A stretch of DNA of 64,000 bases, taken from Thermoproteota archaeon. GTDB lineage: Archaea; Korarchaeota; Korarchaeia; Korarchaeales; Korarchaeaceae. Position numbers and translations under genes: made by a program. Below, piece by piece: positions 28,461-28,680 of the stretch. Below the pieces are notes generated by a model. The model was not told the DNA's origin. It did not search any database and was given only the letters and a program-made list of their open reading frames with translations. Location: the NCBI GenBank assembly GCA_027492205.1, contig JAOZFN010000007.1, positions 11,978 through 75,977 on the forward strand, written 5' to 3'. Positions within the stretch are counted from its first letter, which is position 1. Each line of letters begins with the position of its first letter.

Positions 28461-28500
28461 AGAAGATAAGAAAGAAGAGAGCCCGAAAACGGGCAGAAAA
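28461..28500 (-). terminator. Pyrimidine/oligo-T terminator after tRNA-Trp
   Basis: TTTTCTGCCCGTTTTCGGGCTCTCTTCTTTCTT just 3' of CCA. Confidence 0.6.
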
Positions 28501-28503
28501 GCG

Positions 28504-28642
28504 TGGTGGGGCCGGTGGGATTTGAACCCACGTCCTACGGGTCTCCCCCTCAGTGCTCCACCGACTGGAGCCCGCCGCCCTGACCTGTCCAGGGCGACCT
28601 CGGCCTTATCATCGGGAGGCCACCTGGCTGGGCCACGGCCCC
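28504..28642 (-). tRNA. trnW: tRNA-Trp(CCA) with two introns (28587-28625, D-loop 17/17a; 28543-28564, 37/38); CCA end encoded
   Basis: Acceptor GGGGCCG/CGGCCCC-A-CCA; D stem GCCC/GGGC; anticodon stem GCGGG/CCCGT with loop CTCCAG^A; T arm GTGGG-TTCAAAT-CCCAC; removing 39+22 nt leaves a 78-nt cloverleaf; BHB motifs at both junctions. Confidence 0.93.
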
Positions 28643-28668
28643 ACCGCACGCCCTCTGGGGCCAGACAG

Positions 28669-28680
28669 TATATAACGGTT
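28669..28680 (-). promoter_or_regulatory. BRE/TATA promoter of tRNA-Trp
   Basis: AACCG-TTATATA 27-33 nt upstream of the mature 5' end. Confidence 0.75.

Follow-up and report, generated by a model that had tools for sequence, protein, structure and literature searches.

A candidate box C/D guide for the wobble cytidine of tRNA-Trp, divided between two introns of its own gene in a korarchaeal family

The DNA studied here is a stretch of 64,000 nucleotides (nt) from a Thermoproteota archaeon of the family Korarchaeaceae (Korarchaeia; assembly GCA_027492205.1, contig JAOZFN010000007.1, positions 11,978 to 75,977 of the forward strand), and this whole stretch is referred to below as the window. 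In a gap that separates two long open reading frames, the minus strand of the window carries a tRNA-Trp(CCA) gene of 139 nt (28504..28642) with three exons, two introns and an encoded CCA end. The gene was recognised with the Rfam tRNA model (RF00005; 44.8 bits, gathering score 29), the alignment of which contains two large insertions, and by reading of the sequence, in which the anticodon loop CUCCAG identifies it as tRNA-Trp(CCA). Automatic searches overlooked it: ARAGORN reported no tRNA anywhere in the window and so missed this gene, and a first-look search of the whole genome with RF00005 listed 43 tRNAs, this one not among them. A preliminary description of the locus had proposed that the two introns together hold a box C/D guide RNA aimed at the wobble base, C34, of the same tRNA. 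We compared the gene with its relatives and found that the letters from which the two introns could build such a structure are kept throughout the family.

Intron boundaries were obtained from a search in which every pair of cut sites was tested for the bulge-helix-bulge (BHB) motif, i.e., a helix of 4 base pairs (bp) with a 3-nt bulge 3' of the helix on each strand. A single solution recurs in all relatives examined, and excision of both introns yields a normal cloverleaf. In this solution, exon 1 (28626..28642; this and all following features of the gene lie on the minus strand) covers tRNA nt 1-17, that is, the 5' strands of the acceptor and the D-stem and the start of the D-loop. Intron 1 (28587..28625; 39 nt) interrupts the D-loop after nt 17, a site that is established here and for which the preliminary description gave no position. 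Exon 2 (28565..28586) comprises the rest of the D-arm, the 5' strand of the anticodon stem and the anticodon loop up to G37; intron 2 (28543..28564; 22 nt) occupies the canonical 37/38 site; and exon 3 (28504..28542) contains A38, the 3' strand of the anticodon stem, the variable loop, the T-arm, the 3' strand of the acceptor and CCA. The BHB of intron 1 consists of a 4-bp central helix between tRNA C12-G15 and the intron letters CUGG, two 3-nt bulges and a 9-bp intron hairpin; 100% of the cells of its central helix are paired, with a compensatory change from CG to UA in 5 of 28 sequences. In the BHB of intron 2, the anticodon-loop letters CUCC pair with intron GGGG (96.4% of cells paired), and the 3' bulge reads AG/A, the stroke marking the cut. 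The motif has its relaxed form in both introns, with a weak outer helix in intron 1 and a weak inner helix in intron 2. Thus, each intron has a 4-bp central helix and two 3-nt bulges at the cut sites, and its removal leaves a canonical mature tRNA.

All the motifs named in the original proposal (CTCCC, GATGATA, TGGAGC, A, CTGA and GGGGG in DNA letters) are present in the two introns. Intron 1 carries the strand CUCCC (28614..28618) and, directly downstream of it, a box C-like GAUGAUA (28607..28613), in which the GAU is followed by GA and then U. Intron 2 carries the antisense element UGGAGC (28555..28560), a one-letter spacer A (28554), a box D CUGA (28550..28553) and the strand GGGGG (28545..28549), four letters of which double as the intron side of the central BHB helix formed with the anticodon loop. 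The two outermost strands can pair with each other, and this 5-bp helix corresponds to stem I of a box C/D RNA. When CUCCC pairs with GGGGG, GAU is left as a 3-nt bulge and the GA of one intron faces that of the other, an arrangement with the geometry of a box C/D kink-turn; the stem, bulge, tandem G-A and U-U described earlier for this structure were borne out at the level of sequence. UGGAGC is complementary to tRNA nt 31-36. The coordinates bear out that the fifth nucleotide upstream of CUGA, i.e., the position known as N+5, pairs with C34 (28568), which is the predicted 2'-O-methylation target by this geometry. The division of the proposed guide was likewise confirmed: the box C half is in intron 1, the antisense element and the box D half are in intron 2, and exon 2, which bears the target, stands between them, so that the motif belongs neither to one contiguous RNA nor to one intron.

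Such an arrangement is rarely produced by letter composition. In 200,000 mononucleotide shuffles of both introns, 7,858 (3.9%) contained any GA/GA pair with a flanking 5-bp helix, and only 52 (0.026%) additionally placed C34 at N+5 inside a 5-bp duplex. The layout of a GA/GA pair plus helix was found in none of the 43 other tRNA genes of the genome, 15 of which are at least 86 nt long and several of which contain introns. One further tRNA gene, at C10:7616-7723 (+), with a length of 108 nt and the anticodon region CUCGAGA, appears to have a D-loop insertion too; it is without the kink-turn motif. We also considered a local kink-turn, or a K-loop, within intron 1, and rejected both, as reading of the sequences gave no conserved partner GA with a matching strand.

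Using a DNA search of 61 related genomes, we recovered the whole gene with its introns only in the family to which the window belongs. Within this family, 33 of 36 genomes, which represent four genera (denoted g1, g2, g3 and g5), have a tRNA-Trp gene with both introns; it was not found in the other three, G007 (91% complete), G018 (71%) and G031 (70%). Three sequence patterns did not find a tRNA-Trp in genus g4 or in family f3. A match in G007 is coding DNA, and another candidate, L034, appears to hold tRNA-Met and tRNA-Pro instead. The pattern used to scan metagenomes was drawn from the exons alone and left a gap open at the D-loop. The 23 stretches returned were 2 chance matches in other DNA, 2 incomplete genes and 19 complete tRNA-Trp genes, and all 19 complete genes carry both motifs. 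The alignment used for most comparisons (A3) contains 33 distinct sequences, 28 from genomes of the one family and 5 from metagenomes; the 28 genome sequences were also analyzed separately (alignment A1). It should be noted that the relatives belong to one family and are not independent of each other, and no probability was derived for the covariation described below.

Conservation within the introns is unevenly distributed. Each intron has 14 columns that are kept in at least 31 of the 33 sequences; 25 further columns vary in intron 1 and 8 in intron 2. The conserved columns of intron 1 include G19 G20, C49-U52 and G54 A55, which serve the BHB as the first two hairpin pairs, the central helix and the bulge A; the others are the stem I letters C25 and C28 and the run U32 G33 A34 U35. 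Those of intron 2 are U83-A89, G92 A93, G94 G95 G97 G98 and A99. The variable columns include the four letters past the 5' splice site of intron 2 and most of the hairpin of intron 1. The conserved columns without a role in either BHB are U32 G33 A34 U35, U83-A89 and G92 A93, and these correspond to the core of the kink-turn and to the antisense stretch with its spacer. U32 G33 A34 is invariant (33/33), as are G84-C88 (GGAGC) and G92 A93, and U35 is present in 32 of the 33 sequences. In the related tRNA-Trp genes, stem I, GGAGC, its spacing and the GA of box D are kept in all 33 sequences, and UGAU in 32 of them.

For the comparison of stem I, each sequence was anchored on its two GA dinucleotides. 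A helix that abuts both dinucleotides is present in every sequence, with a length of 7 bp in 16, 6 bp in 6 and 5 bp in 11 of them; in genus g3, the full 7 bp are found in 14 of 15 sequences. The five core pairs are formed in 165 of 165 cells in the 33 sequences, and in 140 of 140 cells in A1. Compensatory changes, amounting to approximately four independent events, affect both ends of the helix and its middle. At position 1, L128 has GC instead of CG, with an additional G in intron 1 and, to match it, an additional C behind the CUGA of intron 2; at position 3, CG is replaced by UA in six g2-type sequences; position 6 is UA in 19 sequences and GC in 2; and position 7 is CG in 10 and GC in 7, with 7 CG versus 7 GC within g3. 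Positions 6-7 carry the most weight, because they are unpaired in the splicing fold on both sides: their 3' strand consists of the last two letters of intron 2, which are the unpaired bulge letters of its BHB, and their partners in intron 1 are unpaired in the local hairpin of that intron, as read from the sequences. When 3' strands were dealt at random among the sequences, the observed total of paired cells was reached in 1 of 5000 trials, and sliding the register by 1-2 nt lowered this total from 204 of 231 to 152-170. In A1, stem I is 100% paired, with 2 pairs changed on both sides, versus 36-55% for the slid versions. Genus g2 provides a separate comparison. There, intron 2 is longer (34-47 nt), and a separate GGAG at its 3' end serves the BHB; xxGA-GGAGG, complementary to CCUCC in intron 1, is still kept.

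The details of the presumed kink agree in part with known ones. Archaeal C/D kinks are described in PMC5689011 as having mostly C:G at -1b:-1n, usually U:U at 3b:3n and a strongly conserved G:C at 4b:4n. Here, the 3-nt bulge and the GA on both strands are present in all 33 sequences, the bulge has A or G as its second letter and always U as its third, -1b:-1n is C:G in 31, and 3b:3n is U.U in 26 by manual tally of the aligned rows; the 4b:4n pair is taken up below. At the level of sequence, a canonical stem, a 3-nt bulge and tandem GA are thus found in 33 of 33 cases. The consensus of box C is RUGAUGA. In our sequences, its first letters R-U-G-A are found in all 33 and the next U in 32. Box D occurs as CUGA (18 sequences), AUGA (8), UCGA (5), UUGA (1) and UAGA (1), so that NUGA accounts for 27 of 33 and the GA for all of them. 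We consider it very probable that a kink-turn shared by the two introns of tRNA-Trp exists.

In all 33 sequences, the GGAGC of the antisense stretch is followed by one nucleotide and then by a 4-nt box D that ends in GA; the spacing is identical throughout, and C34 is therefore at N+5 in every sequence. The RNAalifold consensus consists of the hairpin between the anticodon and the antisense stretch, with five pairs in 33 of 33 sequences and a sixth in 31 of 33. In g2, this hairpin continues into the first letters of intron 2, reaching 8-10 bp, and it shows compensation there (AG...CU versus AAG...CUU, between the genomes and metagenome contig L129). As these additional pairs covary with letters that belong to the intron, they fit the unspliced precursor as the substrate.

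The preliminary description had regarded the guide fold as mutually exclusive with the BHB folds. This holds for intron 2 and is overstated for intron 1. The kink-turn fold and the BHB of intron 2 compete for the same letters, namely the anticodon-loop CUCC and the G-run with its shared GGGG, and in g3 also the bulge of the 3' splice site. Under the kink-turn fold, intron 1 loses only the inner 3-5 bp of its long hairpin, and the core of its BHB can remain. Constrained folding, with no bonus for the kink or for protein binding, gave -64.6 kcal/mol at 37 C and -24.2 kcal/mol at 75 C for the kink-turn fold, compared to -63.6 and -20.2 kcal/mol for the fold with both BHBs. The kink-turn fold is as stable as the double-BHB fold in this calculation, and the unconstrained minimum at 75 C includes stem I and the guide hairpin.

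The genome encodes the proteins of a C/D methylation complex: fibrillarin (PF01269, 296.5 bits), Nop5 (PF01798, 233.3 bits) and L7Ae (PF01248, 104.8 bits), and the genes for fibrillarin and Nop5 adjoin each other. The genome was also searched for an independent guide for C34 of tRNA-Trp. The pattern TGGAGCNNTGA matches 17 sites. When the search was widened to any NNGA preceded by at least 8 contiguous pairs around C34, it gave 149 sites, 5 of which have a C'-like box 9-15 nt upstream; four of these five lie within long stop-free frames (169-872 codons), the fifth is near the end of a frame of approximately 108 codons, and all five were rejected. The most tempting site, at the 3' end of a gene on contig C11, was attributed to chance, since its box-like letters, even the TGA, are lost in 3 of 4 congeners. 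No convincing stand-alone guide was found in this genome, the matches being in coding-like frames or without boxes, although the search is a weak one, as few canonical small RNAs (sRNAs) are recognisable there. Indeed, the canonical pattern of C, D', C' and D boxes gave only 2-3 candidates in the 1.94-Mb genome (C3:72567 (+), C10:41524 (-) and C9:14223 (+), the last at window position 2246), compared to 0 in a reversed control; either the genome has few C/D sRNAs or their boxes are degenerate.

Both the target and the use of an intron as the guide have precedents. According to PMC7668247, Cm34, i.e., 2'-O-methylated C34, is present in tRNA-Trp of Haloferax volcanii, T. kodakarensis and S. acidocaldarius, and the statement that an intron of euryarchaeal tRNA-Trp guides this modification has its precedent in H. 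volcanii, whose tRNA-Trp intron is reported in PMC3326292 to hold a C/D RNA for positions 34 and 39. That system (a 105-nt intron in H. volcanii; also Pyrococcus; PMC3326292, PMC7994747) resembles the present candidate in the tRNA and the C34 target, in the use of the substrate's own intron as the guide, in an antisense stretch directly upstream of box D, and in a guide fold that competes with the splicing fold. It differs, as described there, in having boxes C, D', C' and D in a single 37/38 intron that serves two sites; in the korarchaeal gene, the kink would be built from the D-loop and 37/38 introns of 39 and 22 nt, with the target exon between them, and there is one kink, one guide and a box C reduced to RUGAU. 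In Pyrobaculum, which belongs to the same Thermoproteota-level group, a stand-alone RNA, sR26, is reported to target C34 of tRNA-Trp (PMC6009581). The target nucleotide and the machinery are the same; however, sR26 has a gene of its own and full boxes and works in trans, whereas the candidate described here is borne by introns. In Sulfolobus solfataricus, parts of the tRNA-Trp intron (65 nt) are likewise complementary to the surroundings of position 34; there is only one such intron and, as far as PMC3326292 describes it, it is without recognisable consensus boxes, in contrast to the recognisable kink-turn that spans two introns here.

The closest structural analogs are half-mer and two-strand C/D RNAs (PMC9670817), which likewise have one kink-turn and one guide, a kink that may be built from two strands, and a target five nucleotides upstream of the box. 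Half-mer RNAs are reported there to be approximately as active as those with two motifs in complete ribonucleoprotein particles (RNPs) in vitro, and a plain stem can substitute for a C/D motif with archaeal Nop5, the target still being five nucleotides upstream. These are laboratory constructs, whereas the two strands considered here are natural introns of one transcript. What is known, then, is a guide carried in an intron of tRNA-Trp; what appears to be new is that two introns, on either side of the target exon, contribute to one kink. In full-text searches of the literature, no paper was found to describe a C/D motif that two tRNA introns share, nor one from Korarchaeia.

Taking these observations together, we lean towards a box C/D guide with one kink (a half-mer), assembled across the two introns and acting in cis on C34 before intron 2 folds for splicing. 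This reading is the most economical one, because the antisense stretch is invariant and its spacing is fixed. In the unspliced pre-tRNA-Trp, the C-rich strand and GAUGAU of the D-loop intron would meet the NUGA and the G-rich strand of the anticodon intron, and the two introns together would form a terminal box C/D kink-turn with a stem of 5-7 bp, a 3-nt bulge, tandem G.A pairs and usually a U.U pair. The stretch (U)GGAGC would pair with the anticodon loop of the same molecule, with C34 opposite the fifth nucleotide upstream of box D. L7Ae would bind the kink, and Nop5-fibrillarin would dock as on a half-mer guide and make Cm34. As long as the anticodon loop and the G-run were occupied (in g3, also the last two intron letters), the BHB of intron 2 would be blocked; on release, the G-run would pair with the anticodon loop, the BHB would form, and intron 2 would be excised. 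A more tentative extension, which we consider possible but less likely than not, is that L7Ae, Nop5 and fibrillarin act as a checkpoint. In this scheme, their binding would lock the precursor in a fold in which the 3' splice site of intron 2 and its central BHB helix stay hidden until Cm34 has been made and the RNP has left, and the D-loop intron would be kept as one half of the guide.

Several observations weigh against a cis-acting guide. The C-rich strand also pairs locally inside intron 1. In three genera (g1, g3 and g5), the BHB of intron 2 needs the G-run as the partner of the anticodon, and the conservation of this run is therefore not independent evidence; the signal is partly shared with the splicing folds. 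The kink itself departs from the canonical form: 4b:4n is G:C in 0 of 33 sequences and a Watson-Crick pair in only 10 of 33 (manual tally), and positions 6-7 of box C are variable, which reduces the box to RUGAU. On reading of the sequence, there is no C'/D' motif between the boxes, and a scan of the gene for kink-turns gave only one GA/GA pair. The antisense duplex is limited to 5-7 bp in g1, g3 and g5, 8-10 bp being reached only in g2, and the loop that links guide and target has 3-5 nt in the same three genera and may not fit the RNP. No archaeal C/D family of Rfam matched the locus at E-values up to 10; the best CD-box match across it was the unrelated v-snoRNA-1 (11.1 bits, E 5.9, gathering score 75), and RF00095 gave no match near the gene and none above its cut-off in the genome. 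A metatranscriptome contig, X1 (227 nt, depth 2, with three differences, from a close relative), is colinear with the entire unspliced gene (window 28503-28647) and shows no joints; it could be precursor RNA or carried-over DNA, and it gives no information on modification or splicing.

The sister family, f2, adds a further point of this kind. Its tRNA-Trp genes (L140 (G036), 85-214 minus; L141 (G037), 69-199 minus) have no D-loop intron and a single 37/38 intron of approximately 56 nt. The antisense stretch recurs in this intron as CUCUGGAGC, with a C'-like GAUGAAGA before it, and the start of the intron, CCCCUAUGU, resembles the box C region of intron 1 in g3; in both loci, however, the intron is without a GA or box D at a distance compatible with C34 at N+5. 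The f2 layout may be close to an ancestral layout with one intron.

The alternative that survives best, although we consider it unlikely, accepts the kink-turn and its binding by L7Ae and denies the guide. The structure would then be a folding or timing device: it would clamp the introns to each other and prevent intron 2 from adopting its BHB, e.g., so that the two splicing events follow a set order or the precursor is protected, and the antisense hairpin would merely mask the anticodon. This would account for the absence of the parts of the Nop5/fibrillarin type (4b:4n G:C in 0/33, variable letters 6-7 of box C, no C'/D'; compare PMC5689011), it is in keeping with the direct competition between the kink-turn fold and the BHB of intron 2, and L7Ae is reported to bind kinks outside of C/D RNAs, e.g., in RNase P RNA and in the leader of its own mRNA. 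Conversely, a mere clamp gives no reason for an invariant GGAGC, nor for the one-nucleotide distance to box D that puts C34 at N+5 in 33 of 33 sequences. In addition, C34 of tRNA-Trp is a known C/D target in other archaea according to PMC3326292, PMC6009581 and PMC7668247, and archaeal Nop5 is reported to tolerate even a plain stem where the motif would be (PMC9670817).

A second alternative, which we regard as distinctly improbable, transfers the activity to the excised introns. Probably circularised, they would pair through stem I as a two-piece C/D RNA and methylate C34 of spliced tRNA-Trp, or of other precursor molecules, in trans. In H. volcanii and S. solfataricus, tRNA-Trp introns are reported to remain as stable circles after excision, and that of Haloferax has been reported as trans-acting (PMC3326292); two-strand kink-turns are active in vitro (PMC9670817), and a stem I of 5-7 bp together with L7Ae could hold two small RNAs together. 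However, a bimolecular helix of 5 bp is weak at high temperature, the guide has no added pairing to the spliced junction, the letters 5' of UGGAGC varying freely, and the additional guide pairs of g2 are made with the first letters of intron 2 itself. Finally, it is very improbable that no kink-turn forms and that the conserved letters reflect BHB and hairpin needs plus shared ancestry, with a coincidental likeness to C/D RNAs: the local pairing of the C-rich strand, the double use of the G-run in three genera, with covariation partly shared, and the origin of all relatives from one family speak for this view, but UGAU (in a hairpin loop) and GGAGC-N-NNGA (part of the intron 2 loop) have no BHB role and are invariant or nearly so among variable neighbors, the last two letters of intron 2 covary with intron 1, g2 retains GA-GGAGG although its BHB uses another strand, and the layout is absent from the other 43 tRNA genes and, with C34 at N+5, from all but 0.026% of shuffles.

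The sequence TTATATA (28669..28675, minus strand), approximately 30 nt upstream of the gene, is likely an archaeal TATA box; a scan for sigma-70 promoters near the gene gave nothing, as expected for an archaeon. Directly downstream, a GC hairpin followed by a T-rich run (28481..28494, minus strand; 1 site versus a shuffle mean of 0.4) is a possible transcription end. In g3, a conserved stretch from GGGGGCGUGGUCC through ACGAACAUUGC is located approximately 10-45 nt downstream of tRNA-Trp (L083, L086, L092, L109, L111 and others), and it may be another small RNA gene or its start. Two g1 loci, L004 (G002) and L005 (G003), appear to carry a third intron in the T-loop of tRNA-Trp, of approximately 47 and 26 nt, respectively; the one in L004 contains GUGAUGA, which forms one arm of the inverted repeat AUCACGC/GCGUGAU. 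In family f3, two loci, L145 (G039; approximately 1501-1605) and L146 (G038), contain a disrupted tRNA-like gene with an acceptor and a D-arm as in tRNA-Trp and with UGGAGCGCUGGAGG in its interior. The Rfam tRNA model does not align this gene as a whole, and the loci were not accepted as tRNA-Trp.

Archaeal tRNA introns, above all the non-canonical ones, are mostly regarded as functionless. In the family described here, the D-loop and anticodon introns appear to be mutually dependent, which would explain why both are retained family-wide. It should be noted that two-intron tRNAs of this type are easily missed in annotation, and that searches for guides that require all boxes within one RNA would miss split guides. 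With a length of 139 nt, the gene is a small system suited to testing whether methylation of the anticodon and the order of splicing are coupled. If the guide reading is true, separate parts of one transcript can make up a C/D guide, which so far has been seen only in laboratory half-mer and two-strand constructs. If the checkpoint extension is true as well, the D-loop intron of this korarchaeal family would have been kept for its function, which is rare among non-canonical tRNA introns.

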